This document shows positions 1-43,635 of a stretch of DNA of 47,270 nt, in pieces. The position numbers and the translations under genes are program-made. A model generated the notes under the pieces. It was not told the origin of the DNA. It did not search any database and worked only from the letters and a program-made list of their open reading frames with translations. This DNA is from an uncultured Anaerolineaceae bacterium (GTDB lineage: Bacteria > Chloroflexota > Anaerolineae > Anaerolineales > E44-bin32): positions 1 through 47,270 of the forward strand of contig CAZMZL010000003.1 of NCBI GenBank assembly GCA_964570595.1, in the 5' to 3' direction. Each line of letters begins with the position of its first letter. Positions within the stretch are counted from its first letter, which is position 1.

Positions 1-447
1 AACCTTCAATATGCCGCGCCGCTGGCCGAACAGGCGAATGTGATTTTCACCATCGAGATGCTCAATCCCATCGACAATCCAGGATATTTCCTGACGTCAA
101 CCGTTCAGGGGATTGAAATCGTAGCCGAAATCGACCATGCGCATATTAAATTTCAATTCGATACCTATCACGTCCAACTTATGGAGGGAAATGTGACCCA
201 GATGTTGGTCGATAACATGCCGAGTATCGGCCACATCCAGTTTGCGGATGTCCCCGGCCGGCACGAGCCGGGCACTGGAGAATTGAACTTCGGCAATATT
301 CAAGCCGCCGTTTCTGATGCCGGCTATAGCGGATACATTGGATTGGAATACATTCCCAAGGCGAAGGGCATGGAAGCCCTGGCGTGGTGTAATGTCGGAC
401 CGACAATCAATGAAGAACCATTACCCAATATAAGGAGCGAATCATGA
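1..447 (+). CDS. Hydroxypyruvate isomerase / 2-oxo-tetronate isomerase family protein (xylose-isomerase-like TIM barrel), 5'-truncated by the window edge
   Basis: Frame 1 is open from base 1 (NLQYAAPLAEQANVIFTIEMLNP...). The C-terminal half matches remembered E. coli Hyi motifs (IEPIN-like, Q(F/Y)DxYHxQxMEG, GHIQxAD.PGRHEPGTGE.N, GxxGxEYxP). Stop TGA 445-447 overlaps the next ATG (ATGA). Confidence 0.85.
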   Translation, partial: NLQYAAPLAEQANVIFTIEMLNPIDNPGYFLTSTVQGIEIVAEIDHAHIKFQFDTYHVQLMEGNVTQMLVDNMPSIGHIQFADVPGRHEPGTGELNFGNIQAAVSDAGYSGYIGLEYIPKAKGMEALAWCNVGPTINEEPLPNIRSES

Positions 448-1268
448 GACCACTTTTCAAAGTCGCACCCGAGGGGGGGCATCAATCCATATTTCAGTCT
501 GGGGAGGAGGATATTCACTGGTTGGGCTTAGAAGTCCTGCGTCTGGAACCCGGGGAATCGTGGGAGGGGTCGCTTGCCGATGAGGAAGCAGCCTTCGTGT
601 TGCTCAGCGGAGGGAGCGACATCAGCGTCGAAAACGGGAAGCGGGAGTCTTGGTCCGGTTTGGGGGCTCGGGGAGACATTTTCAGCGGTTCGGCGACGGC
701 AGTCTATGCGCCTCGCAAAAGTAATGTTAAAGTTGCGGCAACCTCTAAGCTTGAAATCGCCATTGCGAAAGCACCCTGTGAGGTTGATTTACCCGCGAGG
801 CTCATCCAACCAACCGATGTAAAAGTCGTATCGTCGGGGATGGCGAACTGGCGCCGCGATGTGCGTTTGATCATTCCCCCTGGATCCCCCATAAGCCAGC
901 GTCTCATCGTTGGAGAGACACTTAATCCACCGGGTAATTGGTCCGGGATTCCGCCTCACAAACACGATCAGGTGACGGAAGAGGAAAACTTCCTGGAGGA
1001 GTTCTACCTTTTCAAAGCCAAGCCAGCTGACAGTTATGGCCTTCAATTAATGTACAAGGATGGAGAGGGTCAGGGTCATATCGTCGGCAATGATGATGTC
1101 ACCGTGATGCTGAGTGGGTACCATCCCACGGTCGCTTCTCCGGGCACGACGATCTGCTATCTATGGGTGCTTTCAGGCGAAGACAAAGGCTACAAAATTG
1201 CGATCGATCCGCGCTTTGGGTGGGTGAGCAATGCCGAAGCGGTGTTAAAGGAAGAGCAGCAAGGTTAG
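444..1268 (+). CDS. iolB: 5-deoxy-glucuronate isomerase (IolB, KduI/IolB cupin family)
   Basis: GNWSGIPPHKHDQ...EENFLEEFYLF and GYHPT closely match remembered B. subtilis IolB (GNWSSYPPHKHDQ..., GYHP). AAGGAG lies 6 nt upstream of the ATG. ATGA overlap with the upstream gene. Confidence 0.85.
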   Translation: MRPLFKVAPEGGHQSIFQSGEEDIHWLGLEVLRLEPGESWEGSLADEEAAFVLLSGGSDISVENGKRESWSGLGARGDIFSGSATAVYAPRKSNVKVAATSKLEIAIAKAPCEVDLPARLIQPTDVKVVSSGMANWRRDVRLIIPPGSPISQRLIVGETLNPPGNWSGIPPHKHDQVTEEENFLEEFYLFKAKPADSYGLQLMYKDGEGQGHIVGNDDVTVMLSGYHPTVASPGTTICYLWVLSGEDKGYKIAIDPRFGWVSNAEAVLKEEQQG

Positions 1269-3235: not shown

Positions 3236-3278
3236 CTATCCGAGATGAAGATTTATGCTGCATATCAGGAGTGATGCT

Positions 3279-4421
3279 ATGAGCAATGAAGAGAAGATTA
3301 ATTATGAAGAGATCGAGATTGTGGGCGATGGCCGCGGCACCATGCAGGGAGATTACCTTCTGAACAAAGATCGACCTATGGATCGCATCCGCTGGTTGCT
3401 GGAGTGTTTCCCGGAGTGGGGGCAATTCCTCAATCGGCAGATCGAAGAAACCGTAGTCGAAGAAGGTACTTTTGCCATGTGGTGGACGGGCGGTATGGGG
3501 TTTATCATCAAGTCTCCAGGCGGCGCCGTCCTCCTGGTGGATAATTACGCCGGGCCAGCGCACTACACGGAGTACGAATATTGCGGCGTGTGCCGCACGA
3601 GCGGATCGCCAACGATCGACTGGCTGCGACTCAACCCGCAGGTGATCGATATTTGGGGTTTCGAGACGCTCGATGGAGTCTTCTGCAGTCACCAGCATGC
3701 GGATCATACCGATATCTACACACTGAAAGCCGCCACACAGACGAGCGACTGTTCTTTTTATGCCCCGCTCTCATCCGTCGAGCGCATGCGCATATTTCAG
3801 GTTCCCGAGGATCGAATTAATCTCGTCCGTCCTGGCGAGAAATATCAAATCAAGGATGTGGAAATCGAGATCCTTCCCAACTATGATCGCATCGCCACGA
3901 TGACGGGCGGTCCCGGCGTCGAGACCAAACCAGGTCTACGTCGACCTTATGATGACGTTGCCGTGACCTTTTTCTTCAAGATCGGCGGCGTGAATCTGGC
4001 ACATCTCGCAGATACACTTTTTCAGAATGCCTACACGACGTTCAAACAGTACAACATTGATGTGATTACGTTCAACATCGGGACGAATGCGCCAGGCGCT
4101 ACGGATAAGATGACCCCATACGACGCAGTACGCATGGCTCAGACGATCGATGCAAAGGTCCTTATGCCCATGCACTGGGACAATTGGGGCAACACCTACG
4201 CGGATCCCGAAGAAGTTGTATGGGTTGCGGAGCGACATCTCCCGGAGGCGAAGATTGTCATTCCGGCCTGGGGCGTGAAGTGGGTCTATCCGAACGAAGC
4301 CGACATCGGTCGGATGAAGTGGGAAGACTGGCGCGAGCGCTATCGCCCGGAATACTCCTGGGAGTACGGCAAGCCAGCCGCAGAAGCGGCTGAAGAACGG
4401 GGAGAGTTCATACCCTATTAA
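3279..4421 (+). CDS. UlaG-like metallo-beta-lactamase-fold lactonase (L-ascorbate-6-phosphate lactonase family)
   Basis: ECFPEWGQFLNRQIEE..VEEGTFAMWWTGGMGFIIKSPGG parallels remembered E. coli UlaG ([36 protein letters not shown]). HQHADHTD metal motif. ITDKMT-like ATDKMTPYD and the MPMHWDNW tail are present. ATG 3279 has AGGAG 7 nt upstream; the tracked ATG at 3255 is possible. Confidence 0.8.
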   Translation: MSNEEKINYEEIEIVGDGRGTMQGDYLLNKDRPMDRIRWLLECFPEWGQFLNRQIEETVVEEGTFAMWWTGGMGFIIKSPGGAVLLVDNYAGPAHYTEYEYCGVCRTSGSPTIDWLRLNPQVIDIWGFETLDGVFCSHQHADHTDIYTLKAATQTSDCSFYAPLSSVERMRIFQVPEDRINLVRPGEKYQIKDVEIEILPNYDRIATMTGGPGVETKPGLRRPYDDVAVTFFFKIGGVNLAHLADTLFQNAYTTFKQYNIDVITFNIGTNAPGATDKMTPYDAVRMAQTIDAKVLMPMHWDNWGNTYADPEEVVWVAERHLPEAKIVIPAWGVKWVYPNEADIGRMKWEDWRERYRPEYSWEYGKPAAEAAEERGEFIPY

Positions 4422-4479: not shown

Positions 4480-5361
4480 ATGCAGAAGGTCGGGTTCATT
4501 GGTCTTGGGTTGATGGGGGGCCCGATGGCGGCGAACGTCGCCAGAGCAGGATTTCCGCTGATCGTATTCAACCGAAGCCCTGACAAGGCAGATCCAGTTG
4601 TTCAACTGGGCGCAAAACTCGCGGCCTCCCCAAAGGAAGTCGCAGATAACAGCGAAGTCGTCGTGATGATGTTGAGTGACGCCTCCGCCGTAAGGGCGGT
4701 TCTGGAAGGGGAGCTGGGTTTAGTGGCCGGGTCGGATGAGGGGCTGGTCGTGATCGATATGAGCACGGTGTCGCCAGATGAATCTCGCGGCACTGCCGCA
4801 CTCCTCAATGCGCATGGAATTCGCATGCTCGACGCGCCGGTCTACGGCAGCACAGGACCGGCAGCGGAAGGCACGCTGGGGATCATGGTGGGCGGGGACA
4901 AGGATCTTTTCGAATCGCAAAAATCCTTGCTGGGTGCGATGGGGAAGAACATCTTCTATATGGGCGATCAGGGAAGCGGGGCAGCCGTCAAGTTGTGCTT
5001 CAACCTGATGGTGGCGGGACAGGTGATTTCGCTCGCCGAGGCTATGGTCCTCGCGGCTAAGGCAGGGCTCGATCTCAAGCAGGTCGGCGAGGTGGTTACC
5101 TCCAGTGGAATCAATTCAAAATTGATCGAGCGAAAAATCGACAACATCGTCACGGACAACTATGCGCCGGCATTCCCGCTAAAACATATGCACAAAGATT
5201 TGGGCTTGATGGTGAATGCTTCAATCGATCTCGATGCGTCTCTACCCACGACGGGGTTAACGCATCAATTGTACACAGCAGCTCGAGCGTCCGGATTCGC
5301 AGAGGAAGATTTCGCGGCCGTCTTCAAGGTCCTTGCACAGATGTCTGCTGTGAAAGCATAA
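4480..5361 (+). CDS. 3-hydroxyisobutyrate dehydrogenase family NAD(P)-oxidoreductase (tartronate-semialdehyde / L-threonate / sulfolactaldehyde reductase-like)
   Basis: N-terminal VGFIGLGLMGGPMAANVARAG dinucleotide fold. Central GSGAAVKLCFN and C-terminal KDLGL motifs are typical of the GarR/MmsB/YihU family. Confidence 0.85.
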   Translation: MQKVGFIGLGLMGGPMAANVARAGFPLIVFNRSPDKADPVVQLGAKLAASPKEVADNSEVVVMMLSDASAVRAVLEGELGLVAGSDEGLVVIDMSTVSPDESRGTAALLNAHGIRMLDAPVYGSTGPAAEGTLGIMVGGDKDLFESQKSLLGAMGKNIFYMGDQGSGAAVKLCFNLMVAGQVISLAEAMVLAAKAGLDLKQVGEVVTSSGINSKLIERKIDNIVTDNYAPAFPLKHMHKDLGLMVNASIDLDASLPTTGLTHQLYTAARASGFAEEDFAAVFKVLAQMSAVKA

Positions 5362-5392
5362 GACGCTTGATAATGCCCGGGAGGTGCAACCA

Positions 5393-6265
5393 GTGAGCAA
5401 AGAAGTGAGGTATTACGCTCCGGATACGATGGAGGAAGCTCTCCAGATCTTAAAGGAGCACGGATCAACCGTCAGTGTGCTTGCGGGAGGAACGGATCTG
5501 GTCCGGGACATGAACCTTGAATTTAAGATACCTGACGGCATCATGTGGATTGGCAGGCTGGGACTCGAGTATGTCGAACCCGATGTCGACGTCATCCGCG
5601 TGGGCGCGGGCACAAGGATGCAAACGGCGGCATCCTCAAGCCTGATCCAGGAAAAAGCGCGTGCGCTTGCCGACGCGGCGGGAAAGATGGCGAGTCCTCC
5701 AGTCCGGTCTCTGGCGACGCTGGGCGGGAATCTGTGCAATGCTTCACCGGGTGCGGATACCGGCTGTGCGCTGTTGGGGCTGGATGCACAGGTCGTGTTG
5801 AAAAGTTTGTCCGGTGAGCGCGTGATCGAACTGCGGGAGTTTTTCACCGGGCCGAATGATACGGTGATCCATCCGGATGAGCTTATGACCGAGATACGCA
5901 TCCGACCTGTCGGGAATGAAGAAGGGTCATCCTATAAAAAGATCGGGCGCAGGAAGGCGATGACGTTAGCCGTGCTCAACACGACCGCACGCGTCAAATT
6001 GGACAGCGATGGCAACTGCGAGGCGGTGTACATCGCGGTAGGCGCGGCGGCACCGACACCGCTTCGGATCGAAAAAGCTGAAAAGCTCCTTGTCGGCCAA
6101 CCCTTTACCGAGGAAGTTATACGCGAAGCCGCGAAAATCGCGTCGGAGGAAATCAAACCGATCGATGATGTTCACGGAACGGTGTGGTATCGGCGCAAGG
6201 TCGCGCGGGTTCTTGTCGAACAGACATTGCGAGAAGCGGGCGGGCTCAACGGAGGCGTGAAATGA
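5393..6265 (+). CDS. Molybdenum hydroxylase FAD-binding (medium) subunit, CoxM/XdhB/NdhF-like
   Basis: Y.APDTMEEALQILKEHG....LAGGTDL and TLGGNLCNASPGAD are FAD_binding_5/CO_deh_flav_C signatures. GTG 5393 has GGGAGG 8 nt upstream; the tracked start is GTG 5384. The stop overlaps the next ATG (ATGA, 6262-6265). Confidence 0.85.
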   Translation: MSKEVRYYAPDTMEEALQILKEHGSTVSVLAGGTDLVRDMNLEFKIPDGIMWIGRLGLEYVEPDVDVIRVGAGTRMQTAASSSLIQEKARALADAAGKMASPPVRSLATLGGNLCNASPGADTGCALLGLDAQVVLKSLSGERVIELREFFTGPNDTVIHPDELMTEIRIRPVGNEEGSSYKKIGRRKAMTLAVLNTTARVKLDSDGNCEAVYIAVGAAAPTPLRIEKAEKLLVGQPFTEEVIREAAKIASEEIKPIDDVHGTVWYRRKVARVLVEQTLREAGGLNGGVK

Positions 6266-6729
6266 ATTACCCCATCACTTTTACACTCAACGGTGAACGA
6301 GTTGAGGTTGAAGCCCCCGCAACGGTGAACCTGCTCACCCTGCTGCGCGAAACCCTAGATCTGAAAGGGACAAAATTCGGCTGCGAGCAGGGCAACTGCG
6401 GCGCCTGCACGGTCAATATCGATGGCGAAGCCGTGAATTCATGCCTTGTGCTGGCGCTTACGGTCGATGGCAAAGAAGTAACCACGATCGAAGGGATCGG
6501 AACGCCGGAAGGACCCCATGCGCTGCAGAAGGCTTTTACAGAACACTACGGTGCGCAGTGCGGTTTCTGCACACCCGGCATGATCATGGCGTTGAAGCCA
6601 CTGGTCGAAAATCTTAAAGAACCCACTCGCGAAGATGTCGTTGAAGCGATTGTGGGGAACGTCTGTCGCTGCACGGGGTACAACAAAATCATCGAGTCGG
6701 TCCTGGCAGCTGCGGAAGAGACGAAGTAG
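6262..6729 (+). CDS. Molybdenum hydroxylase [2Fe-2S] (small) subunit, CoxS/XdhC-iron-sulfur/NdhS-like
   Basis: Two cysteine clusters are present: CEQGNCGACTV (plant-type) and CGFCTPGM...CRCTGY. The ATG at 6262 gives the usual MN..ITFTLNG start. The tracked upstream extension (6184-6261) is Arg-rich, overlaps the FAD subunit and is rejected. Confidence 0.9.
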   Translation: MNYPITFTLNGERVEVEAPATVNLLTLLRETLDLKGTKFGCEQGNCGACTVNIDGEAVNSCLVLALTVDGKEVTTIEGIGTPEGPHALQKAFTEHYGAQCGFCTPGMIMALKPLVENLKEPTREDVVEAIVGNVCRCTGYNKIIESVLAAAEETK

Positions 6730-6743
6730 CGGAGGAGATAATC

Positions 6744-8054
6744 ATGACGGATACAGCATACGTTGGTAAAAGACTCCCGCGCTACGATGGCATGCAGCAC
6801 GCAGTCGGGAAAACCCGCTTTGTGAACGACATTACACTTCCGGGCTTGCTGTATGTGAAAGCGTGGCGCTCCCCGGTGCCTTCCGCCAGGATCAAGAAAA
6901 TCGATGTGAGCAAAGCAGAAAAAGTTCCTGGCGTGGTTGCCGTCATCACCCACAAACATGTACCGAACAATCGTTACGGCTTTGCCGGTGACTATCCCGT
7001 TCTGGCGGATGAGGAAATACGTTACATCGGCCAGGAGGTTGCGGCGGTTGCAGCCATCGATGAAGAGACGGCGCGGAACGCGGTGGACCTGATCGAGGTG
7101 AAGCTCGAAGAACGGCCGCCTGTCCTGGATCCGTTTAAGGCCATGGAGCCCGATTCACCCAAGGTGCGTCCGGAAGGAAATCTGCTTTACTTCGAGGACA
7201 TGCCCTACCGACCTGTCCGGAAGGGCGATGTCGAGCCTGCCCTTGAAAAAGCCGATTATGTCGTGGAGGGTTACTACCGGACCGCGGCTCAAGAGCACTG
7301 CCCGATCGAAACACAGGTGAGCATCGCCCAGACCGATTCGATGGGCCGAACCCACATCCATTCCGTCACCCAGGCGGCATTCTTCAACCAGGGTACGATT
7401 GCGAGCATTCTGGATAAATCTCTCTCAAACGTGCATATGATCGCGGGCGTTGTCGGCGGCGGGTTCGGCGCGAAAAACGATCCGCACGCCGACCATATCT
7501 GTGCGGTGTTGTCGCTGTACACGGAAGGCAAACCCGTGAAGTGGCTGTGGACGCGTGAGGAAGAGTTCGTGGCATCCACCCATCGCGGATCGATGCATAT
7601 GTACTTTACCGACGGGGTTATGAAAGATGGCCGCATCATCGCCCGCAAGATAAAAAGTTATCGAGATGGCGGTGCCTACGTCTCTACGAATGATTACGTG
7701 CAGGGCAAGCACGCCTTCGGTGTGGCAGGTCCATACAATATCCCCAATGTGTATGTGGATGCGTACGTTGTTTTCACGAACAAAAGGCCCGCCAGCTCGA
7801 TGCGCGGATTCGGCCTCTATCAGGCTTCTTTCGCCCATGAGGTCCAGATGGAGCGCATCGCCAAGACGATCGGGATGGACTCGTGGCGTGTGCGTTTCGT
7901 CAACGCTGTCCATGACGGCAATCTCTCTCCAACTCAGGCGGAACTACATGCCTGCGCTCTGATTGAGGTGATGCAGGCGGCAGCGACTCGAGCGGGCATT
8001 AAGCTGGATGATGATCTCCTCAAGATGTCGTCCAAAATGGGCAGGGAGGCATAA
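6744..8054 (+). CDS. Molybdopterin-binding large subunit, N-terminal part (a/b-hammerhead plus first Moco domain), NdhL-like
   Basis: VGKRLPRYDGMQHAVGKTRFVND hammerhead start. GGGFGAK and the xanthine-dehydrogenase/aldehyde-oxidoreductase-type MRGFGLYQASFAHE motif are present. GGAGGAG SD. Ends TAA 8052-8054, immediately followed by ATG 8055. Confidence 0.85.
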   Translation: MTDTAYVGKRLPRYDGMQHAVGKTRFVNDITLPGLLYVKAWRSPVPSARIKKIDVSKAEKVPGVVAVITHKHVPNNRYGFAGDYPVLADEEIRYIGQEVAAVAAIDEETARNAVDLIEVKLEERPPVLDPFKAMEPDSPKVRPEGNLLYFEDMPYRPVRKGDVEPALEKADYVVEGYYRTAAQEHCPIETQVSIAQTDSMGRTHIHSVTQAAFFNQGTIASILDKSLSNVHMIAGVVGGGFGAKNDPHADHICAVLSLYTEGKPVKWLWTREEEFVASTHRGSMHMYFTDGVMKDGRIIARKIKSYRDGGAYVSTNDYVQGKHAFGVAGPYNIPNVYVDAYVVFTNKRPASSMRGFGLYQASFAHEVQMERIAKTIGMDSWRVRFVNAVHDGNLSPTQAELHACALIEVMQAAATRAGIKLDDDLLKMSSKMGREA

Positions 8055-9056
8055 ATGGCTACAAAACACGGAACGGGCATCGCAGCAGTCTGGTATTCCA
8101 CTGGAATGAGCGGCGGCGGTGACCCCAGTCAGGCCATGATCAAGATGCAGCCCGATGGAAGTGTGGACGTCATTATCGGGACGGTCGACATCGGGCAGGG
8201 TATCCGCTCTATCGCCCGCCAGATTGCCGCGCAGGAGCTGGGGGTTTCCATCGACAAGGTGAACGTCACCACGGTGGATACGGACAGCAGTCCACTGGAC
8301 ACGGGAACTTTTGCCAGTCGTGCTACACATCAAACCGGAAATGCCGTGCTCCTCGCAGCCAGAGAGGCGCGTGGGGTCCTTTTCGAGGTCGCCGCGGAGC
8401 AATTAGGCGTGGAAGCAGAGGAACTTGTTGCCGAGAATGATACTGTGGTCGTGCGGGATCGACCGGAACAGGCGATCCCCATCTCTGAAGTAGCTGGTCA
8501 TGCAACCTGGTCGGAGCGCAAATTGATTGCAGGCCGGGGCGCCTATGGTTGGCCGGTGGCCGAGATAGATCCACAAACAAGCAAAGGCGAGCCTCTGCAC
8601 AACATGGCCTATGGGGCGACGATCGCCGAAGTGGAGGTCGACACGGATACCGGCGAAGTCACCGTGCTCAAACTGGTCAGCGCTTATGACTGCGGCAAAG
8701 CGATCAACCCGATGCTGGTGGAAGGTCAGATCGATGGCGGCGCAGCGATGGGGCTGGGTTCTGCGCTGCTGGAAGAACTCCACCCATACTACCCGACGCT
8801 GGATCACTACCCGAAGGGTTTTTTCTCCTACATGATGCCGACCGCGAAAGACGTGCCGGATCTGGAAGCTGTGGTGGTTGAGATGAACTCCGAAAGCGGG
8901 CCTTATGGTGCCAAAGGCATCGGGGAGATGACCGCCAATTCCCAGGCTCCCGCGATTGTGAACGCGATCTATGATGCGGTCGGCATCTGGGTCATGGATG
9001 TCCCGGCTACTCCGGAGAAGGTGCTCCGGTTGCTGGAGGAAAAAGGAGCTGAATAG
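8055..9056 (+). CDS. Molybdopterin-binding large subunit, C-terminal part (second Moco domain), NdhM-like
   Basis: Starts exactly where single-chain enzymes have ..G.GIA..: HGTGIAAVWY...DGSVDVIIGTVDIGQG. C-terminal AKGIGEM carries the catalytic Glu of the XDH/AOR type. Zero-nt spacing from the upstream stop. Confidence 0.85.
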   Translation: MATKHGTGIAAVWYSTGMSGGGDPSQAMIKMQPDGSVDVIIGTVDIGQGIRSIARQIAAQELGVSIDKVNVTTVDTDSSPLDTGTFASRATHQTGNAVLLAAREARGVLFEVAAEQLGVEAEELVAENDTVVVRDRPEQAIPISEVAGHATWSERKLIAGRGAYGWPVAEIDPQTSKGEPLHNMAYGATIAEVEVDTDTGEVTVLKLVSAYDCGKAINPMLVEGQIDGGAAMGLGSALLEELHPYYPTLDHYPKGFFSYMMPTAKDVPDLEAVVVEMNSESGPYGAKGIGEMTANSQAPAIVNAIYDAVGIWVMDVPATPEKVLRLLEEKGAE

Positions 9057-9328: not shown

Positions 9329-10195
9329 ATGCCGAAACAAGAAAAAACCTTTCGAGTGGGTGCAGTCTCAATACCCATGAACCTTGGGAATACGAGCCAG
9401 TACATCCCACCGGAACAAATCTACCTGACCCCGCCGCAAGGGTATCTCGAGAAACTTGTCTACGCGGTTTCCAACCGCCTGCCCGTTCTCCTCATCGGTG
9501 AGACCGGCGTAGGAAAGACCCAGGCGGTCCGCCATCTCGCGTGGAAGACCAATAATGGTCTGCGCAGGGTTAATCTTAACGGTGCGACAACCGTCGATGA
9601 GTTTCTCGGAAAACTGCTCATTAATGAGCAGGGAACGTACTGGGTCGATGGTGTGCTCGTAGATGCCATGCAAACCGGAGATTGGATCCTGCTCGATGAG
9701 ATCAACGCATGTCTACCCGAAATCGCCTTCTGTCTGCATTCTCTCCTCGATGATGACCGCATGGTCGTTCTGACGGAACACGATGGACGCATCGTGCGGC
9801 CCCACCCGAACTTCCGACTTTTTGCGAGCATGAATCCCAGCGAGGAAGGCCGTTATGGCGGCACAAAGATGCTCAATGAAGCGCTGATGGATCGGTTTCC
9901 GGTGGTCATCAGAATGGAGTACCTGCCCGAAGAAGAGGAAATCGAGGCGGTCATTGCACAAAGCGGCAACGATGATCGTGAACTTATCACGCGAATGGTT
10001 CAAGTGGCGAACGACGTGCGCCAGGCCGTCCGAAGCGAAAAGCTTTTCGGCTCCTTCAGCACAAGAAGAGTGATTGATTGGGCTCGAATGTCGAAAATAT
10101 TCGATGTGCGCGAGAGCGCTCAGTTCACGATCGTCAGCAAGATGAGTCGTTACGACGCGGAAGCAGTGGAGGACATCATTGACCTCTACTTCTGA
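9329..10195 (+). CDS. AAA+ ATPase of the MoxR / AAA_5 class (CbbQ/NorQ/CoxD/CobS-like)
   Basis: Walker A LLIGETGVGKTQ, Walker B WILLDEINA, sensor region FRLFASMNP and an arginine-finger region LMDRF are present. Size (288 aa) is typical of Q-type activases. Confidence 0.85.
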   Translation: MPKQEKTFRVGAVSIPMNLGNTSQYIPPEQIYLTPPQGYLEKLVYAVSNRLPVLLIGETGVGKTQAVRHLAWKTNNGLRRVNLNGATTVDEFLGKLLINEQGTYWVDGVLVDAMQTGDWILLDEINACLPEIAFCLHSLLDDDRMVVLTEHDGRIVRPHPNFRLFASMNPSEEGRYGGTKMLNEALMDRFPVVIRMEYLPEEEEIEAVIAQSGNDDRELITRMVQVANDVRQAVRSEKLFGSFSTRRVIDWARMSKIFDVRESAQFTIVSKMSRYDAEAVEDIIDLYF

Positions 10196-11942
10196 TCTCA
10201 ACCAGGTGGTTGAAGTGCGGCGCGATCGCATGGAGCGCCTGATCCAAAATGCGATCGGTGACTACGAGCTGCGGTTTGATTTTGGCGAAATGGATCGGAT
10301 AAGCCAGGGCCATCTCATCCTGGGTGTGGAACCGGAACTTGTCCGAAACTCGCTTCATCGTTCGCTCGTTGGACGGGTCCTTCACCTTCTGGGTCATTAC
10401 CTTAATGAAACCACGGAGTGGTGGCCCGTTGTCCGGCGCGAAGAAGACCAGGGTCGACCTCACTTTGTTTCGCTCTGGCACGCAATCGAAGATGCACGGA
10501 TTGAGAACAGCCTGCTCGATCGCTGGCCCGGTGCGGATAAATTCTTCAGGACGAAAATTCCACCCAATTTGCGTGGATCCTTAATAAGACTCATGGCCAC
10601 CACGCAGCAGGTCGAAATGGGATTGTATCTTGAAGGGAGAGGGATTTCAGGAGCTGCGTGGGATCCTCGAGTTGAAGATGTACTTAATCGGATGTCGGAA
10701 GACATTCGCAAAGGTGCGCATGGACCAACCCCGCGTGTCTCGTTGAACGCAATGATCGAGATTTACCCGCAGGTTGCACCTCTTCTCCGAGCGGAACATG
10801 TATCCCGCCGCAGTTCAGCATCTTCAGGAACGGATTCGAAGCTCCATGCGATCGATCGCGAAGAAGATGGGGCGGATGACAGAACCGATCAAATAGAGAA
10901 ATATAGCAGCCCCGAGATAGAGAGGACCGATGAACTCGTTGCTGTCGGTTTGACCGGTCGACAGCGGGACCTTCCGGAATGGTTCCGCCCAGGTACTGCA
11001 CCATGGTTTGAGCGTGGGCTCGGGGGAAAAAAAGTGCATCCGTCCGCGGTTCGAACGGATCGAGAAACGATCGTCAATCCACCCGAAGGTGATATTTCTA
11101 TCTACCGAGGCTTACACACGGAGGTGAAACACGACGCTGGTTTTCTGGTACGGAGGTTGACCTCCTTGCTGCGTGAGGATGTGTATTTGCGGTACGGGGG
11201 TAATTTTCGCACGGGAGGCTTGAATACTGCCAAGCTCTGGCGACAGCGGCTCGGTGTATATCGGCTTTTTCAACGTCCGATCAGCGGAATGGAGCGACCC
11301 GTGGCCTTCACGCTTCTTGTGGATGAGAGCGCAAGCATGAAGGGACAGGGCAAATACAAACTGGCGACAAAGACAGCCATTCTGCTTGGCGAGACCCTCA
11401 ATCAACTGGATGTCCCTCTGGAGATCATCGGGTATTCGACGGCAGAGTACGAAGCTAAGGCGGCGCTGACCCTCGGTTTACGCCCTGCCTACGAGTATCG
11501 GACGACGAGATGCAGCCCGCTCGAGCACCGCATCTACAAGCGATTCGACGAACCTTTCCCATTTGTGCGTGCTCGTCTGATCGGTATTCGACCGCGGCAT
11601 AATAATTGGGATGAAGAACATCTGCTCTTTGCGTTCCGGCGTATCCACACCCGCCCTGAAATGCGAAAGGTGATCATCGTTATTTCTGATGGACAACCCA
11701 ACGGTGATGCTGAATATCTGATAAAAACGGTTGAAATGATCGAGCGGACGCGGTGCAAAGTCGTGGGAGTGGGCATCGGCGCTGATTTTGTAAAGGATAT
11801 CTATACAAACGCGATTGTCGTGTCGGATTTTCGTCAATTAACGCTCGAGCTCCTGGATGTTCTGGTTCGGGAATTTGGCAGGGGATCACCCAGCATGAGC
11901 TTCAGCCCGCGCCGGGCTCCAGGCTATGGAGCCGTACGATGA
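10179..11942 (+). CDS. von Willebrand factor A (VWA) protein with a long N-terminal region, CbbO/NorD/CoxE/CobT-like partner of the AAA+ ATPase
   Basis: C-terminal VWA domain with MIDAS LLVDESASM ... ISDGQPNG. N-terminal LWHAIEDARIEN resembles the NorD/CbbO-type motif. Overlaps the AAA gene. The start is uncertain: TTG 10179, GTG 10206 or ATG 10230. Confidence 0.8.
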   Translation: MTSTSDLNQVVEVRRDRMERLIQNAIGDYELRFDFGEMDRISQGHLILGVEPELVRNSLHRSLVGRVLHLLGHYLNETTEWWPVVRREEDQGRPHFVSLWHAIEDARIENSLLDRWPGADKFFRTKIPPNLRGSLIRLMATTQQVEMGLYLEGRGISGAAWDPRVEDVLNRMSEDIRKGAHGPTPRVSLNAMIEIYPQVAPLLRAEHVSRRSSASSGTDSKLHAIDREEDGADDRTDQIEKYSSPEIERTDELVAVGLTGRQRDLPEWFRPGTAPWFERGLGGKKVHPSAVRTDRETIVNPPEGDISIYRGLHTEVKHDAGFLVRRLTSLLREDVYLRYGGNFRTGGLNTAKLWRQRLGVYRLFQRPISGMERPVAFTLLVDESASMKGQGKYKLATKTAILLGETLNQLDVPLEIIGYSTAEYEAKAALTLGLRPAYEYRTTRCSPLEHRIYKRFDEPFPFVRARLIGIRPRHNNWDEEHLLFAFRRIHTRPEMRKVIIVISDGQPNGDAEYLIKTVEMIERTRCKVVGVGIGADFVKDIYTNAIVVSDFRQLTLELLDVLVREFGRGSPSMSFSPRRAPGYGAVR

Positions 11943-13015: not shown

Positions 13016-14518
13016 ATGGCTAAAAATGACACTGTAACAACACTCCCTATGGTCATCGATGGAAAACAAGTTGCGGGAGCATCGAAGGAATTTATCGAAG
13101 TTGTGAATCCGTCGGATGGTGGAGTGGTCGGGAAGGTGCCCATCGCAAGCGAGGTGGAGATCGATGCTGCTGTTCAATCCTCCTATAATGCGTTCAAGGG
13201 GTGGCGCGATACTCCTGCAGTTGAACGAGCCGGTTATATGCTCAAGCTTATTCAGGGGATGCGAGACAACATCGACGACATCGCCCACGTACTCACCCGT
13301 GAACAAGGAAAACCTTTCCCCCAGGCGAAAGGCGAGATCGGCGGTTTCTGTGCAGTGATGGAATTCTATGCTCAGGAAGCGCGCCGTATCAGCGGCATGG
13401 TGCTGCAATCCGATCACCGTGATCGTTTCGTCTATGTGCTCCGCGAACCGCAAGGTGTCGTGGCCGCCATTCCTCCATGGAACGATCCGCTTCACCTGCT
13501 CAGCCGAATGATGGGTCCTGCTCTCGCTGCCGGCTGCACGGTCGTGGCCAAGCCGTCTTCGGACACCCCCATGGCTACCTTGATGATGGGACAAATTGCG
13601 GTCGATGTTGGCGTGCCGCCGGGGGTGATCAACGTGATCACGGGGCCGGGGGGGAAAGTGGGCGAAGCGCTCGTGCGTCATCCGAAAGTCGCACACGCCT
13701 CTCTGACCGGCAGCCTGCCTGGCGGTATTGCCGTGATGCAAGCTGCTTCAGAAGGGATGAAGCGCGTCACACTCGAACTGGGTGGGCAGTGCCCGTGCAT
13801 TGTCTGGGAGGACGCCGACATCGACAAGGCGGTTGATGCGCTTGTGTTCCAGGCATTCCGCGGCTGTGGCCAAGTATGCAACCGGGTCAATCGCGTCTAC
13901 GCGCATGAGAAGATCTATGATGAACTCGTCAAAAGGGTCGCCGAATTAGCCTCGCGCATCGTCGTCGGGGACGGATTTAAGGACGCTGTGGATATCGGCC
14001 CGCTCGTGAATACGCGTCAATTGGCATGGGTCACAGATCAGGTGGAGAAGGCCCTCTCCGAGGGCGCAAAAGTGCTCGCCGGCGGCGGACCTCTTACTGG
14101 AGAGGGTTTTGATGGCGGGAACTTCTTTGAGCCAACCGTCCTGGTGGACTGCAAACAAGACATGGAAATCATGCAGCAGGAGACGTTCGGTCCTGTACTG
14201 GCGTTCATGAAAGTCGGCGGGGACCTCGAGGGCGCATTTGAATATGCAAACGACGGTTGGAATGGACTTGCGGCCTACTTCTTCAGCCGCGACCAGAGAA
14301 ACTGTTTCCTGGCAGCGCGGCGGTTGACGGCCGGGTCGGTATGGATCAACGACATCCATGGATCGATGGTGCAGGCGCCCTATGGCGGCATGAAGCAAAG
14401 CGGCATGGGTCGCGAGCAGGGTGCCCTTGCAGTGGACGAGTATCTTGAGTGGAAGACGGTTTACCACGAGATGAGTTACGAATCACGCGGCGCACGAGCC
14501 TGTGTGCATCACAAATAA
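13016..14518 (+). CDS. NAD(P)+-dependent aldehyde dehydrogenase
   Basis: PPWNDP (FPxN-like), LELGGQCP (general-base Glu), FRGCGQVCNRVNRVY (catalytic Cys) and EETFGP-like QETFGPV are present. 500 aa. Confidence 0.9.
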   Translation: MAKNDTVTTLPMVIDGKQVAGASKEFIEVVNPSDGGVVGKVPIASEVEIDAAVQSSYNAFKGWRDTPAVERAGYMLKLIQGMRDNIDDIAHVLTREQGKPFPQAKGEIGGFCAVMEFYAQEARRISGMVLQSDHRDRFVYVLREPQGVVAAIPPWNDPLHLLSRMMGPALAAGCTVVAKPSSDTPMATLMMGQIAVDVGVPPGVINVITGPGGKVGEALVRHPKVAHASLTGSLPGGIAVMQAASEGMKRVTLELGGQCPCIVWEDADIDKAVDALVFQAFRGCGQVCNRVNRVYAHEKIYDELVKRVAELASRIVVGDGFKDAVDIGPLVNTRQLAWVTDQVEKALSEGAKVLAGGGPLTGEGFDGGNFFEPTVLVDCKQDMEIMQQETFGPVLAFMKVGGDLEGAFEYANDGWNGLAAYFFSRDQRNCFLAARRLTAGSVWINDIHGSMVQAPYGGMKQSGMGREQGALAVDEYLEWKTVYHEMSYESRGARACVHHK

Positions 14519-16474: not shown

Positions 16475-18832
16475 GTGAATGCATCCATCAAGCAAATAGA
16501 TAAGCGTTATCAAGCGTTGGAGAAGAATCTTGACCAGTGGCAGAAGACCGCCGACATCATTGATCAGCTCATCGATATCATTCTGAACTATCGGCAAAGC
16601 GGCCATCCGGGAGGATCTCGATCAAAGGTGCATGCGATGGTGAGTCTGTTGCTCAGCGGGGCCATGCGTTGGGATGTCCGAGATCCGGAGAAGAGATTTG
16701 GCGACCGTTTTATCCTTGGGGCAGGGCATACCATCCCGCTCCTTTACTGCACGTTTGCGGTTCTGAACGAAGCCATGCGGATGAAACATGAGCAGACAGG
16801 GGACAAAAAATACCTTATCCGAAACGCGGAGCGCCGAGCGCTTTACTGGGAAGATCTGCTCCAATTCCGTCGGCGCGGTGGTCTCTCGGGTCATGCCGAA
16901 ATGGAAGGCAAGACTCTCTTCCTGAAATTCAACACCGGTCCTTCCGGTCATGGCAGTCCTGCGGCTGCAGGCGAAGCCCTGGCGCTTAAGCGGGCCGGTT
17001 GTGGTGAGGTGAAAGTTTTCTGTTTTGAAGGTGAAGCGGGTCTCACGCCCGGTTCCACGCACGAGACCATGAACTCGGCCTGGGGGCTGGGTTTGGATAA
17101 TTTGTACTATCTCGTGGATTGGAACGACTATGGCATCGACGATCACAGCGTAAGCGACGCGGTTTATGGCACGCCGACGGATTGGTTTGCCTCGCATGGC
17201 TGGAGGGTCGTGGGCACGGACGAGGGGAGTGAATGGGGGCCGGTCTTGAGGACGATTCTCGAGTTGGCCATGGGGGCCCGCGAGGATGGTGTCCCGTCGG
17301 CGGCCTGGTTTAAGACGAGAAAGGGACGCGGGTATCTCAAGTATGACAACGCTTCCCACGGGACGCCGCATCCGATGAACAGCGAACTCTTCTGGAAGTT
17401 AAAGGAACCATTTGCGGAAAAATATGGGGTTGAGTTTACGAACTTCGGCGGCGGTCCACCAGAGAGCCCGGAAGCTTTTGAGGAAGAATTTGAAGCAAAC
17501 CTGCGCGCGGTGATGGATGTGCTTCGCCAGGACCAAACTCTGGTCGATTATCTGTCGGATGCGCTCGTGGAAATTGGCGAAAGCGTTCCTCTCGAGGTCA
17601 AGGGTTTTCTACTCGGAAAGCAAGGGAACCCATTCGAGGATCCGGCGCTTTATGATTATGAGAATTACCCCGCGGATCTTTTCGCAGAACCGGGTGAGAA
17701 GGTCGCCAATCGCGCCGCACTGGCGAAGTGGGGCGCGTGGGTGAACGCATTCGGCGCGACCAAATACGGTCGACCCTTGTTCCTTGTCAGCTCAGCCGAT
17801 CTCGCCGGTTCCACGAACATCAGCGGCTTTGCGGACAAATATAAAGATTTCGAGGGTTATGGCTGGTACAAGCGTTACGGTACGGATGCAGGCGTGCTCC
17901 TTCCGCAGGAGATCACGGAGTTCGCCAATGCGGGCATCATGGCCGGATTGGCGACCGTTAATCTCGCTGATGACCCCGAAAAATATTTCGATGGATTCTG
18001 GGCGGCATCCTCGACCTACGGTTCCTTCTCCTACCTGATGTATGGGCTGATGCGATTGTTCAGCCAACTGGCGCAAGATTGCGATCTAAAGGTCGGCAAG
18101 ACGCTATGGGTGGCGGGCCATTCTGGACCCGAAACGGCAGATGACAGTCGCACGCATTTCGGCATCTTTTCGCCTGGGGTCACTCAGCTCTTCCCGGAGG
18201 GGCAGGTCATCAATTTACATCCCTGGGAGCACAATGAAGTCCCGGTGCTCCTGGGCGCCGCGCTTAAGACTGAAGTTCCCATTATCGCACTCCATCTCAC
18301 CCGCCCACCGATTGAAATCCCCGATCGCGAGAAGATTGGGATGCCCTCCCATTATGAAGCTGCAAAGGGAGCCTACGTGGTGCGGGATTATAAGGCGGGT
18401 GCTCCCCGAGGGGGCGCTGTTATCGTTCAGGGAACAAGCGCGATGGCGAACATCGTGAAAATCCTGCCTGACCTGGACGAGAAGAAGCTCAACGTCAAGA
18501 TCATCTATGCTGCCAGCCCGCAGCTCTTCGCCCGACAGCCGGTCGAATACCGGGAGAGCGTGATCACATCAGCCGATCGGGTAGATTCGACCGTGATCAC
18601 GACTCAAGGTCGCTGGTTGATGCACGACTGGCTGTTCAACAAGGTATCTGAGGCGTACTCGCTTTCCGCCGATTGGGACGACCGTTGGCGAACCGGCGGG
18701 AACCTCGAGGAAGTGATTGAAGAGGCTCAGCTATCTCCTGAGTGGATTTTGAAAGGCATTGAGAGATTTGTAAAGGAACGGGAAGGACGCCTGAACCGCC
18801 TATCGGCTGAATTGGAATCGGCTCGAATGTGA
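16475..18832 (+). CDS. Long, divergent transketolase-family thiamine-diphosphate enzyme (785 aa)
   Basis: SGHPGGS, DRFILGAGH and NTGPSGHGSPAAAGEALA are present. The TPP/Mg segment reads FEGEAGLTPGSTHE...LVDWNDYGID, where canonical TK has GDGxxxEG...DxNxxxID. GTG start with AAGGAG 7 nt upstream. Confidence 0.75.
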   Translation: MNASIKQIDKRYQALEKNLDQWQKTADIIDQLIDIILNYRQSGHPGGSRSKVHAMVSLLLSGAMRWDVRDPEKRFGDRFILGAGHTIPLLYCTFAVLNEAMRMKHEQTGDKKYLIRNAERRALYWEDLLQFRRRGGLSGHAEMEGKTLFLKFNTGPSGHGSPAAAGEALALKRAGCGEVKVFCFEGEAGLTPGSTHETMNSAWGLGLDNLYYLVDWNDYGIDDHSVSDAVYGTPTDWFASHGWRVVGTDEGSEWGPVLRTILELAMGAREDGVPSAAWFKTRKGRGYLKYDNASHGTPHPMNSELFWKLKEPFAEKYGVEFTNFGGGPPESPEAFEEEFEANLRAVMDVLRQDQTLVDYLSDALVEIGESVPLEVKGFLLGKQGNPFEDPALYDYENYPADLFAEPGEKVANRAALAKWGAWVNAFGATKYGRPLFLVSSADLAGSTNISGFADKYKDFEGYGWYKRYGTDAGVLLPQEITEFANAGIMAGLATVNLADDPEKYFDGFWAASSTYGSFSYLMYGLMRLFSQLAQDCDLKVGKTLWVAGHSGPETADDSRTHFGIFSPGVTQLFPEGQVINLHPWEHNEVPVLLGAALKTEVPIIALHLTRPPIEIPDREKIGMPSHYEAAKGAYVVRDYKAGAPRGGAVIVQGTSAMANIVKILPDLDEKKLNVKIIYAASPQLFARQPVEYRESVITSADRVDSTVITTQGRWLMHDWLFNKVSEAYSLSADWDDRWRTGGNLEEVIEEAQLSPEWILKGIERFVKEREGRLNRLSAELESARM

Positions 18833-42519: not shown

Positions 42520-43635
42520 TTGGAGTCGGGAACCAAAGGTGGTATCGTAATCGTCATCCATGGTTTGGAGACTTGCGTGCGCGAATTAAAGAAGGAAATT
42601 GAGGCCTGGATAAGCAGCGGTCATGAGATCGCCCTGGCGACCGTTGTGAGAACATGGGGTTCCTCGCCGCGAGGAGTGGGGGCGAAGATGGTTGTGCGGG
42701 GGGATGGTGCGTTCGCCGGTTCGGTGAGCGGCGGTTGTGTGGAAGGTGCAGTGATTGAGGCCGGTTTGGATGTCTTGAAAACGGCGAAGCCCAGGCTGCT
42801 GCACTTTGGCGTCAGCGATGAGACGGCCTGGGAAGTTGGATTGGCTTGTGGGGGCGAAATCGATGTCTTTGTGCAAAAGCTTGAAATCGGTTCATTTACG
42901 CAAATAAGAGACGCTTTTTCGACGGGTTCATCCCTCGCCATCGTCACGGTGATCAACGGGACCGAATCTCTCGTTGGTGAACAGATTGTCCTGATGCATG
43001 ACGACGGGCCCAGGTCGTCAGACGCCATGCGCTTCGCAACCTCGACATCCGATGAAATCGAGCGTTTGTTTAACGGGGGAGTACCCTCCGTAATCCAGGG
43101 GACGACGTCGAATGACGATCCCGTGGAGCTGTACGTCGAAGTCATCGCGCCTGCTCCCACGCTCGTCATCATCGGCGGGGCGCATATATCGGTGGCCCTC
43201 ACGCAATTGGCCAAACACGTGGGTTATCGGACGGTGCTCATTGATCCTCGTCAGGCATTTGCGAAAGAGGAACGCTTTTCGGATCTCGATGCCCGCATCA
43301 CGACCTGGCCCCAGGATGCCCTCAAGGAACTTTCCCTCACGCCATCGACGGCCGTCGCTGTGCTCACACACGACCCCAAGATCGACGACCCCGCGCTGCT
43401 CATCGCGCTCCGGAGTGAGGCGTTCTACATTGGGGCGCTGGGCAGCAGGAAGACGCAAGCCGCCCGCAGAATGAGGCTGATCGAAGCAGGATTAAGCGAA
43501 AAGGAGGTCGATAGACTCCGGGGGCCTATCGGGCTGGCCATCGGCGCAAGTACGCCCGAGGAAATCGCGCTTGCGATCATGGCCGAGATCACAGCCGTAC
43601 GACGCGGGAGAGGGGGTGAAAGGATCACCATCTGA
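42520..43635 (+). CDS. XdhC/CoxI family molybdenum-hydroxylase accessory protein
   Basis: N-terminal ALATVVRTWGSSPRGVGAKMVVRGDGAFAGSVSGGCVE (XdhC_CoxI) and a C-terminal Rossmann LVIIGGAHISVAL...IGALGSRKT. The likely true start is GTG 42577 (GGAG 6 nt upstream) rather than TTG 42520. Confidence 0.85.
   Translation: MESGTKGGIVIVIHGLETCVRELKKEIEAWISSGHEIALATVVRTWGSSPRGVGAKMVVRGDGAFAGSVSGGCVEGAVIEAGLDVLKTAKPRLLHFGVSDETAWEVGLACGGEIDVFVQKLEIGSFTQIRDAFSTGSSLAIVTVINGTESLVGEQIVLMHDDGPRSSDAMRFATSTSDEIERLFNGGVPSVIQGTTSNDDPVELYVEVIAPAPTLVIIGGAHISVALTQLAKHVGYRTVLIDPRQAFAKEERFSDLDARITTWPQDALKELSLTPSTAVAVLTHDPKIDDPALLIALRSEAFYIGALGSRKTQAARRMRLIEAGLSEKEVDRLRGPIGLAIGASTPEEIALAIMAEITAVRRGRGGERITI

Follow-up and report, generated by a model that had tools for sequence, protein, structure and literature searches.

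A conserved four-gene molybdenum hydroxylase with a divided cofactor subunit in a sugar-type operon of an uncultured Anaerolineaceae bacterium

The window analysed here, a 47,270 nt stretch of DNA from an uncultured Anaerolineaceae bacterium (positions 1 to 47,270 of contig CAZMZL010000003.1, GenBank assembly GCA_964570595.1), carries four co-directional genes, F, S, L and M, which encode a molybdenum hydroxylase (FSLM) with its molybdenum cofactor (Moco) subunit divided between two proteins, L and M. All four open reading frames (ORFs) have Pfam domains above gathering thresholds, and together these make up the complete xanthine oxidase/Mo hydroxylase set of the Mo-FeS-FAD type (Table 1). In L, the Ald_Xan_dh_C and MoCoBD_1 matches cover residues 22-387, whilst in M the MoCoBD_2 match begins at residue 4; hence the cut lies exactly between the two Moco domains. 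The stop codon of L, TAA at 8052-8054, abuts the ATG start of M at 8055-8057 in the same frame, and the junction of F and S is an ATGA overlap. F is likelier to start at GTG 5393, giving 290 aa, than at GTG 5384, giving 293 aa, because the former is better spaced relative to a GGGAGG sequence at 5378-5383. An earlier note on this DNA had described a four-cistron hydroxylase in the order F-S-L-M, its Moco subunit formed by ORFs of 436 and 333 aa that abut at ATG 8055 and are parted at the domain boundary; the ORFs and the Pfam domain ends bear this out.

The division of the Moco subunit is shared by all close relatives. In a search of 5.8 billion proteins with L as the query, all 120 L homologues among the matches listed, at 68-92% identity, are 404-453 aa long and contain the hammerhead and MoCoBD_1 domains only; no fused form occurs among these 120 closest listed homologues. 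M is a separate gene, of 333-353 aa, in eight related loci. At all 12 of the L/M junctions compared, a GGAGG-type ribosome-binding site is found 5-9 nt ahead of the M start, while the type of stop codon and the geometry of the junction vary, with TAA or TAG directly followed by ATG, ATGA overlaps and gaps of 2-12 nt. The three GTDB genomes of the same family with an orthologue also have a short L frame, of 444 aa in G416 and 471 aa in G429; that of G435, an incomplete genome, is partial (252 aa). A read-through model of L and M (TAA=G) folds in AlphaFold as one complete Moco subunit, with a mean pLDDT of 74.9 and Foldseek TM-scores of around 0.75 to 1RM6 and to chains of carbon monoxide dehydrogenase (CODH) and xanthine dehydrogenase (XDH); the junction residues, 432-441, have pLDDT values below 50, as expected of an exposed flexible linker. 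The idea that the split is a recent nonsense mutation or assembly error, leaving the large subunit a pseudogene, has a next to negligible chance of being right: an abutting in-frame TAA and ATG could result from a single point mutation in a fused gene, and a near-identical pair in another part of the clade has one fused member (P0271) and one split member (L039), but the nonsense-mutation reading was dropped because L is short in every listed homologue down to 68% identity, M is called separately, the family orthologues are split and the ribosome-binding site of M is kept across varied junctions. Instead of the single fused ORF that a recent nonsense mutation would have left in close relatives, the orthologues are all split. 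Hence the split is real and under selection, and both a nonsense mutation and an assembly artefact are excluded.

The near-identical pair consists of L039 (10108-12545), from a GTDB genome, in which L and M occupy different frames, and L048 (P0271), a metagenome contig, in which the Moco genes form one 787 aa ORF with a linker resembling a frameshifted copy of the L tail. This difference represents either a real recent fusion or an assembly frameshift. At a further locus, L051, L and M are intact although most of the operon genes are fragmented, much as frameshift-prone assembly would leave them.

The subunit order and sizes had been likened to those of the nicotinate dehydrogenase (NDH) NdhF/S/L/M of Eubacterium barkeri, and as a description of architecture this holds. 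The gene order F-S-L-M is common to both (PMC10331938), and the best solved-structure matches of L and M are the 425 aa and 330 aa chains of that enzyme, with end-to-end alignments: L 5-417 corresponds to NdhL 6-415 (3HRD_A, E 5e-70) and M 4-325 to NdhM 3-323 (3HRD_B, E 3e-67), the E. barkeri Moco subunit being cut at the same inter-domain point. However, identity is just 35% for L and 40% for M. Among 1.84 billion cluster representatives at 50% identity, the window's L group corresponds to a single cluster (P0002, 88%), and the next matches outside it, at most 47% identical, include both split proteins of about 430-460 aa and fused ones of about 770 aa. Quick trees of the L part were built with IQ-TREE for 137 rows and for a 53-row subset, support being given by the Shimodaira-Hasegawa-like approximate likelihood ratio test (SH-aLRT) only. 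In the larger tree the window's L belongs to an all-split clade of 14 rows (SH-aLRT 99); NdhL falls in another starred clade, of 32 mostly fused rows, to which the YqeB-linked hydroxylase of the window's genome belongs as well. The tree does not group the window's L with characterised XDH or NDH. The split state is found in 32 of these 137 nearest 50%-identity clusters, and the starred branches force at least 10 changes between split and fused forms. In the 53-row tree the fused P0271, P0273 and P0274 are nested in the split clade, giving 17 rows (14 split, 3 fused), which suggests that these three are secondary fusions.

An approximately unbiased (AU) test on the 53-row subset rejects the joining of NdhL to the 17-row clade (delta lnL 100, p 1.6e-9), although the tested group was named only after the tree had been seen. 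Given this rejection and the low identity, the NdhLM-like architecture is a parallel state rather than a sign of orthology. Nor is the split a rare hallmark of the Ndh type; it is common and labile in the family, having been gained or lost repeatedly. The surroundings differ as well: the window's group is set apart from Ndh by a sugar-acid context and an AAA+/VWA partner pair, and its operon has neither nicotinate-fermentation genes nor any link found to selenium maturation genes. The nicotinate-fermentation set includes 6-hydroxynicotinate reductase, enamidase and 2-methyleneglutarate mutase; neither Pfam nor NCBIfam assigned any such gene in the window or in seven related contexts.

The comparison with Ndh had carried a hint of selenium dependence, and a check for selD, yqeB and yqeC had been proposed. 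All three are present in the genome, SelD with an in-frame TGA and YqeC as a fusion with MocA, but YqeB and YqeC are located on contig C67, directly beside a different, fused purine-type Mo subunit. They do not track the operon either: in the family, 32 of the 41 genomes sampled have YqeB, whereas the operon was found in three of the 36 searched, and G395 (100% complete) and G381 (94%) have split FSLM genes of the wider clade without YqeB. No evidence linking FSLM to the labile-selenium system was found in these data, selenium content itself not being readable from sequence. A split Moco subunit is a marker of neither nicotinate dehydrogenase nor selenium dependence; it is a labile gene structure, altered many times in the family.

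The C67 locus (L005:5175-13226, minus strand) encodes a fused FAD+FeS subunit of 472 aa and a fused 740 aa Moco subunit with the purine-type Glu (GGAFGGRED), followed by YqeB and YqeC-MocA; two ORFs between the subunit genes, of 605 and 174 aa, have no NCBIfam match. It looks like a selenium-dependent purine-type hydroxylase cluster. The SelD gene (C264:1175-2104) contains one in-frame TGA; its product probably contains selenocysteine, and the organism probably has the selenocysteine machinery.

The active-site motifs quoted in the earlier note are present, with SSMRGFGLYQASFAHE in L and GAKGIGEMT in M, and L was rightly said to have no CODH-type loop: AYRCSFR and AYRGAGR are absent from it, the loop reading SSMRGFG. 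When aligned with NdhLM, HcrA, E. coli XdhA and PaoC, and the genome's own C67 paralogue, FSLM keeps the catalytic Glu (GIGE, in M) and the Moco-contact Arg (MRGFG, in L), which align with the NdhM/NdhL, XdhA and PaoC motifs; GIGE and MRGFG are invariant in 121 orthologues. In the same set N245 (following GGGFGAK), K322 and the S351-S352-M-R-G-F-G loop of L are invariant or nearly so. The residue after GGGFGxK, a position that we take to be Glu802 of bovine xanthine oxidase, is Asn245 here, but NdhL has Leu, E. coli XdhA has Gln and the purine-type C67 paralogue has Glu at this point; Lys322 is replaced by Arg in NdhL. The substrate pocket is unreadable in the AlphaFold model, in which loops 236-243, 352-357, 454-461, 511-529 and 717-723 have pLDDT values below 50.

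All of the NCBIfam equivalogs PucD, XdhA, selenium-dependent XDH, HcrA, glyceraldehyde dehydrogenase, CoxL and PaoC score far below cut-off, the best being PucD with 301 bits against 784. Xanthine dehydrogenase (XdhA/PucD/XdhB) was rejected on this score and on the presence of Asn245 where the purine type has Glu, and aerobic CODH (form I/II CoxL) on scores of 174 and 158 bits against cut-offs of 991 and 950 and on the SSMRGFG loop. The models for 4-hydroxybenzoyl-CoA reductase (4-HBCR) gave 261/231, 107 and 164 bits against 995, 405 and 258, with F matching HcrB only partly; the beta subunit of 4-HBCR has an extra Fe-S-binding insertion. Archaeal glyceraldehyde oxidoreductase (GAOR; NF041018/19/20) was set aside at 216, 192 and 159 bits against 790, 350 and 290, a GAOR-like function being possible despite the missed models. 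Judged by these comparisons, FSLM is an oxidative hydroxylase-type member of the family, distinct from XDH, CODH and 4-HBCR and with a pocket signature of its own.

FSLM is set in a sugar-type operon with the neighbours that had been described, and these are conserved in related loci of about 70% identity, which come from metagenome-assembled genomes and for which the sources label some homologues Anaerolineales or Chloroflexi. The core module consists of genes for a ribose-type sugar ABC transporter, a TIM barrel protein, a KduI-family isomerase, a metallo-beta-lactamase-fold (MBL) protein and a dehydrogenase, then FSLM and the AAA+/VWA pair. Full-length orthologues of the TIM barrel are closest to hydroxypyruvate isomerase/2-oxo-tetronate isomerase (Hyi/OtnI), at 234-251 bits, below cut-off. 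The beta-hydroxyacid dehydrogenase gene is immediately upstream of F in every context seen, and there is no sugar kinase in the core module. The accessory genes of the window encode an aldolase of the dihydrodipicolinate synthase (DHDPS) family, two zinc-dependent alcohol dehydrogenases (Zn-ADHs), an aldehyde dehydrogenase (ALDH), a 2-hydroxyacid dehydrogenase, a second TIM barrel and a transketolase-like (TK-like) protein; of these, the aldolase, ALDH and TK-like genes come and go between related loci, and in L052 and L053 a minimal operon ends after the AAA+/VWA pair. None of the core neighbours has a name at NCBIfam equivalog level, matches above cut-off being confined to accessory genes (a dapA match and a borderline L-threonine dehydrogenase match). 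Rfam models detected no riboswitch in the window, the Moco riboswitch included.

Table 1. Features of the FSLM locus and its neighbours in the window
Feature	Position	Strand	Remarks
TIM barrel gene, xylose-isomerase fold, 3' part	1..447	+	core; full-length orthologues Hyi/OtnI-like
KduI/IolB-family cupin isomerase	444..1268	+	core
UlaG-like metallo-beta-lactamase-fold putative lactonase	3255..4421	+	core; PDB 2WYL, E 1e-52
Beta-hydroxyacid dehydrogenase	4480..5361	+	core; closest to tartronate semialdehyde reductase / L-threonate dehydrogenase
F, FAD-binding subunit	5384..6265	+	293 aa from GTG 5384; Pfam FAD_binding_5 and CO_deh_flav_C
S, 2x[2Fe-2S] subunit	6262..6729	+	155 aa; Pfam Fer2 and Fer2_2
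L, N-terminal half of Moco subunit	6744..8054	+	436 aa; hammerhead and MoCoBD_1
Shine-Dalgarno GGGAGG for M	8044..8049	+	within 3' end of L, 5 nt before ATG
M, C-terminal half of Moco subunit	8055..9056	+	333 aa; MoCoBD_2, from residue 4
M loop WYSTGMSGGGDPSQ	in M		named beside N245 and K322 for pocket comparison
AAA+ ATPase, CbbQ/NorQ/CobS type	9329..10195	+	MoxR, AAA_5/CbbQ_C
VWA partner protein	10179..11942	+	587 aa; CobT_C-like VWA domain; overlaps AAA+ gene
Classical ALDH	13016-14518		accessory
Transketolase-like protein	16475-18832		785 aa; accessory thiamine diphosphate enzyme; weak Transketolase_N, pyrimidine-binding and C_1 domain matches
XdhC-family Moco insertion/sulfuration chaperone	42520..43635	+	candidate partner

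The operon is patchily distributed, having been found in one of 27 other species of the genus and two of nine other genera of the family, among those searched. The TK-like gene occurs in the window and in L002, L049 and L050, and is absent from the minimal operons; in L003 and L004 its place is taken by a 2-hydroxyacid dehydrogenase and a glycerate kinase, and the operon closes with glycerate 2-kinase. That of L049 closes with an XdhC gene 48% identical to the window's. Distant split FSLM loci, at 40-50% identity, have other contexts and no AAA+/VWA pair; their neighbours are kynureninase and an MFS transporter, an amidohydrolase, or a GMC oxidoreductase with DHDPS and ALDH. Two fused members of the same clade are in sugar-type clusters, containing either many TIM barrels with GFO_IDH_MocA and FGGY, or a sugar ABC transporter with ROK. 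Two specific routes were considered for the operon and rejected. An inositol route of the IolE/IolD type was set aside because the core TIM barrel resembles Hyi/OtnI, not IolE, and there are no IolC, IolD, IolJ or IolG homologues; a sulfosugar route, prompted by TauE, a dehydrogenase resembling SLA reductase and the TK-like protein, was set aside as TauE and the TK-like gene are not part of the conserved core.

In all six intact contexts the AAA+/VWA pair comes directly after M, on the same strand; it is also retained in the minimal operons, and no terminator-like site is found on the plus strand in the 272 nt spacer separating M from the AAA+ gene. The ATPase most resembles CobS, CbbQ and NorQ, and the VWA domain CobT. 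In 400 sampled genomes of the phylum, this AAA+ type gave a single match better than E 1e-40 (G097, 34% identity), hence the pair appears to travel only with this operon. A Mo/FAD/FeS enzyme with a similar accessory set is CODH, in which CoxMSL is accompanied by CoxD (a MoxR AAA+ protein), CoxE (VWA) and CoxF (XdhC-like), and CoxD, CoxE and CoxF mature the active site (PMC4240915, PMC3471820); NorQ and NorD insert iron into nitric oxide (NO) reductase (PMC9976466). The window differs from the Cox system in its split large subunit, in having SSMRGFG in place of AYRCSFR, and in the type of the pair, the ATPase being of the CbbQ/NorQ/CobS type and the VWA protein CobT_C-like, whereas the Cox VWA protein is CoxE. 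From its position adjoining FSLM and the analogy with CoxD/CoxE, the pair probably matures or reactivates the hydroxylase. That it instead works for a different enzyme of the operon, or is a passenger of the selfish or conflict-system kind, is rather unlikely, if the strongest of the alternatives weighed here: pairs of the Q/D type act on targets as unrelated as Rubisco, NO reductase and cobaltochelatase, and the distant split loci do without one, but the invariable position after M, the uninterrupted spacer and the persistence of the pair in minimal operons after loss of the aldolase, ALDH and TK-like genes argue against it.

We propose that FSLM is a functional split Mo/FAD/2x[2Fe-2S] dehydrogenase that oxidises an aldehyde or lactol in a sugar-acid pathway. 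That it is a real, conserved, split four-subunit enzyme and not an orthologue of Ndh is almost certain; for the statement in its entirety, function included, the chances are evenly balanced. L and M are made separately and assemble into one Moco-binding unit. M is translationally coupled to L and has a ribosome-binding site of its own, located within the last part of the L gene; the split is ancestral to a Chloroflexota clade and arose independently of that between NdhL and NdhM in E. barkeri. The substrate would be the aldehyde or hemiacetal (lactol) carbon of a small sugar or sugar-acid semialdehyde, converted to a carboxylate or lactone, with electrons passing from Mo through the two FeS centres to FAD and on to an acceptor. 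This step would belong to a kinase-free sugar-acid pathway, together with the UlaG-like lactonase, the enzyme resembling tartronate semialdehyde reductase and L-threonate dehydrogenase, and the Hyi/OtnI-like and KduI/IolB-like isomerases. Two variants both fit the invariant neighbours. In the first, modelled on the deoxyribose dehydrogenase and lactonase of Pseudomonas (PMC6365646), the Mo enzyme would oxidise a sugar to a lactone, which the UlaG-like lactonase would then open; in the second, the beta-hydroxyacid dehydrogenase would convert a hydroxy-acid to a semialdehyde, which the Mo enzyme would oxidise irreversibly to a dicarboxylate.

An aldehyde or lactol appears the most likely substrate from context and comparison. 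The conserved core module, the glycerate 2-kinase of L003 and L004 and the sugar-type clusters around members of the same clade support such a function, as do the Asn replacing the purine-type Glu, the conserved K322 and the precedent for a Mo dehydrogenase working with a lactonase (PMC6365646). Several points weigh against the proposal. The evidence on the substrate is all indirect, and the AAA+/VWA pair is assigned its role by adjacency and analogy; the classical ALDH of the operon could by itself perform any aldehyde oxidation; and the active-site loops, with pLDDT values below 50, leave the pocket unreadable. Split members of the wider clade stand beside kynureninase, amidohydrolase or GMC oxidoreductase genes, so that the wider clade as a whole is not tied to sugars, and the closest characterised enzymes (NDH, 4-HBCR and, by NCBIfam score, XDH/PucD) act on aromatic or heterocyclic rings.

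It is unlikely that FSLM hydroxylates an N-heterocycle, whether nicotinate, another pyridine or a purine-like compound, as NdhFSLM does; in that case its sugar-type neighbours would act on a heterocycle carrying a ribosyl or other sugar group, or have nothing to do with it. Both L and M find their best PDB match in 3HRD, which is cut at the same point, PucD, XdhA and HcrA give the highest NCBIfam scores, relatives in the wider clade adjoin kynureninase or amidohydrolase genes, and NdhL has an Arg at the position of the Lys322 that is invariant in the window's clade. Nevertheless, the identity to NdhL and NdhM of 35-40%, the AU rejection of a common clade, the wide margins by which equivalog cut-offs are missed (such as 301 against 784 bits) and the replacement of the purine-enzyme Glu by an invariant Asn speak against such a function, and in no context does the operon contain 6-hydroxynicotinate reductase, enamidase, mutase or purine-catabolic genes.

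Far less probable still is a reductive role like that of 4-HBCR, in which FSLM would remove a hydroxyl from a ring or enol intermediate. In favour of this, HcrA ranks second among the PDB matches and first among the Foldseek matches of the read-through model, but it falls in a separate clade of the tree and has AKEASEG where FSLM has the catalytic Glu of oxidative hydroxylases; F is an ordinary 293 aa flavoprotein with a partial HcrB match (107 bits against a cut-off of 405), and no CoA-ligase or benzoyl-CoA genes are nearby.

The aldehyde or lactol oxidation that we favour would not be without precedent, and the suggestion that a Mo hydroxylase step is new to bacterial carbohydrate pathways is overstated. 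Pseudomonas simiae has a Mo-dependent, IorAB-like deoxyribose dehydrogenase that converts the sugar to a lactone, the ring of which is then opened by a lactonase (PMC6365646). This is a bacterial member of the same superfamily and a precedent for pairing a Mo enzyme with a lactonase; unlike FSLM, it is a two-subunit, proteobacterial enzyme of the IorAB type that has a cytochrome c as partner and lacks an FAD subunit, and the likeness is one of description. The GAOR of Sulfolobus (PDB 4ZOH) is, like FSLM, a Mo/FAD/FeS enzyme of the xanthine oxidase family, and oxidises an aldehyde in a non-phosphorylative sugar pathway ending in glycerate kinase (PMC4726530), just as glycerate 2-kinase closes the L003 and L004 operons. 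It differs in being archaeal and in its fused large subunit; L matches 4ZOH with a PDB E-value of 2e-40, and the NCBIfam scores are 216 and 163 bits against 790. There is a slim chance that FSLM carries out a Mo-dependent sugar or sugar-acid oxidation with no characterised bacterial counterpart.

The FSLM architecture is both already known, from NdhFSLM, and common; what is distinctive is the core operon and the coupling to an AAA+/VWA pair of the NorQ/CbbQ type. The subfamily is a well-delimited group of uncharacterised Mo hydroxylases, at most 47% identical to other clusters and 35-40% to the nearest characterised enzyme, carried in uncultured Anaerolineae by a conserved kinase-free sugar-acid operon. 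Were its substrate identified, bacterial carbohydrate or acid-sugar catabolism would gain a Mo-dependent step, and MoxR/VWA chaperones a new client.

In L047 (459-19637), a related fused hydroxylase is clustered with six xylose-isomerase-fold TIM barrel genes and with GFO_IDH_MocA, FGGY kinase, GlcD/GlcF-like, LarA-like, creatininase-fold and UPF0261 genes, so that here too a Mo enzyme forms part of an unassigned pathway of the sugar type. L001 (5269-12885), from a 4.7-Mb assembly, holds a decayed copy of the operon that begins at the Zn-ADH gene and is truncated on both sides: the AAA+/VWA genes are gone, and M has been cut to 128 aa by a SNF2-helicase/DUF3670 block on the opposite strand.

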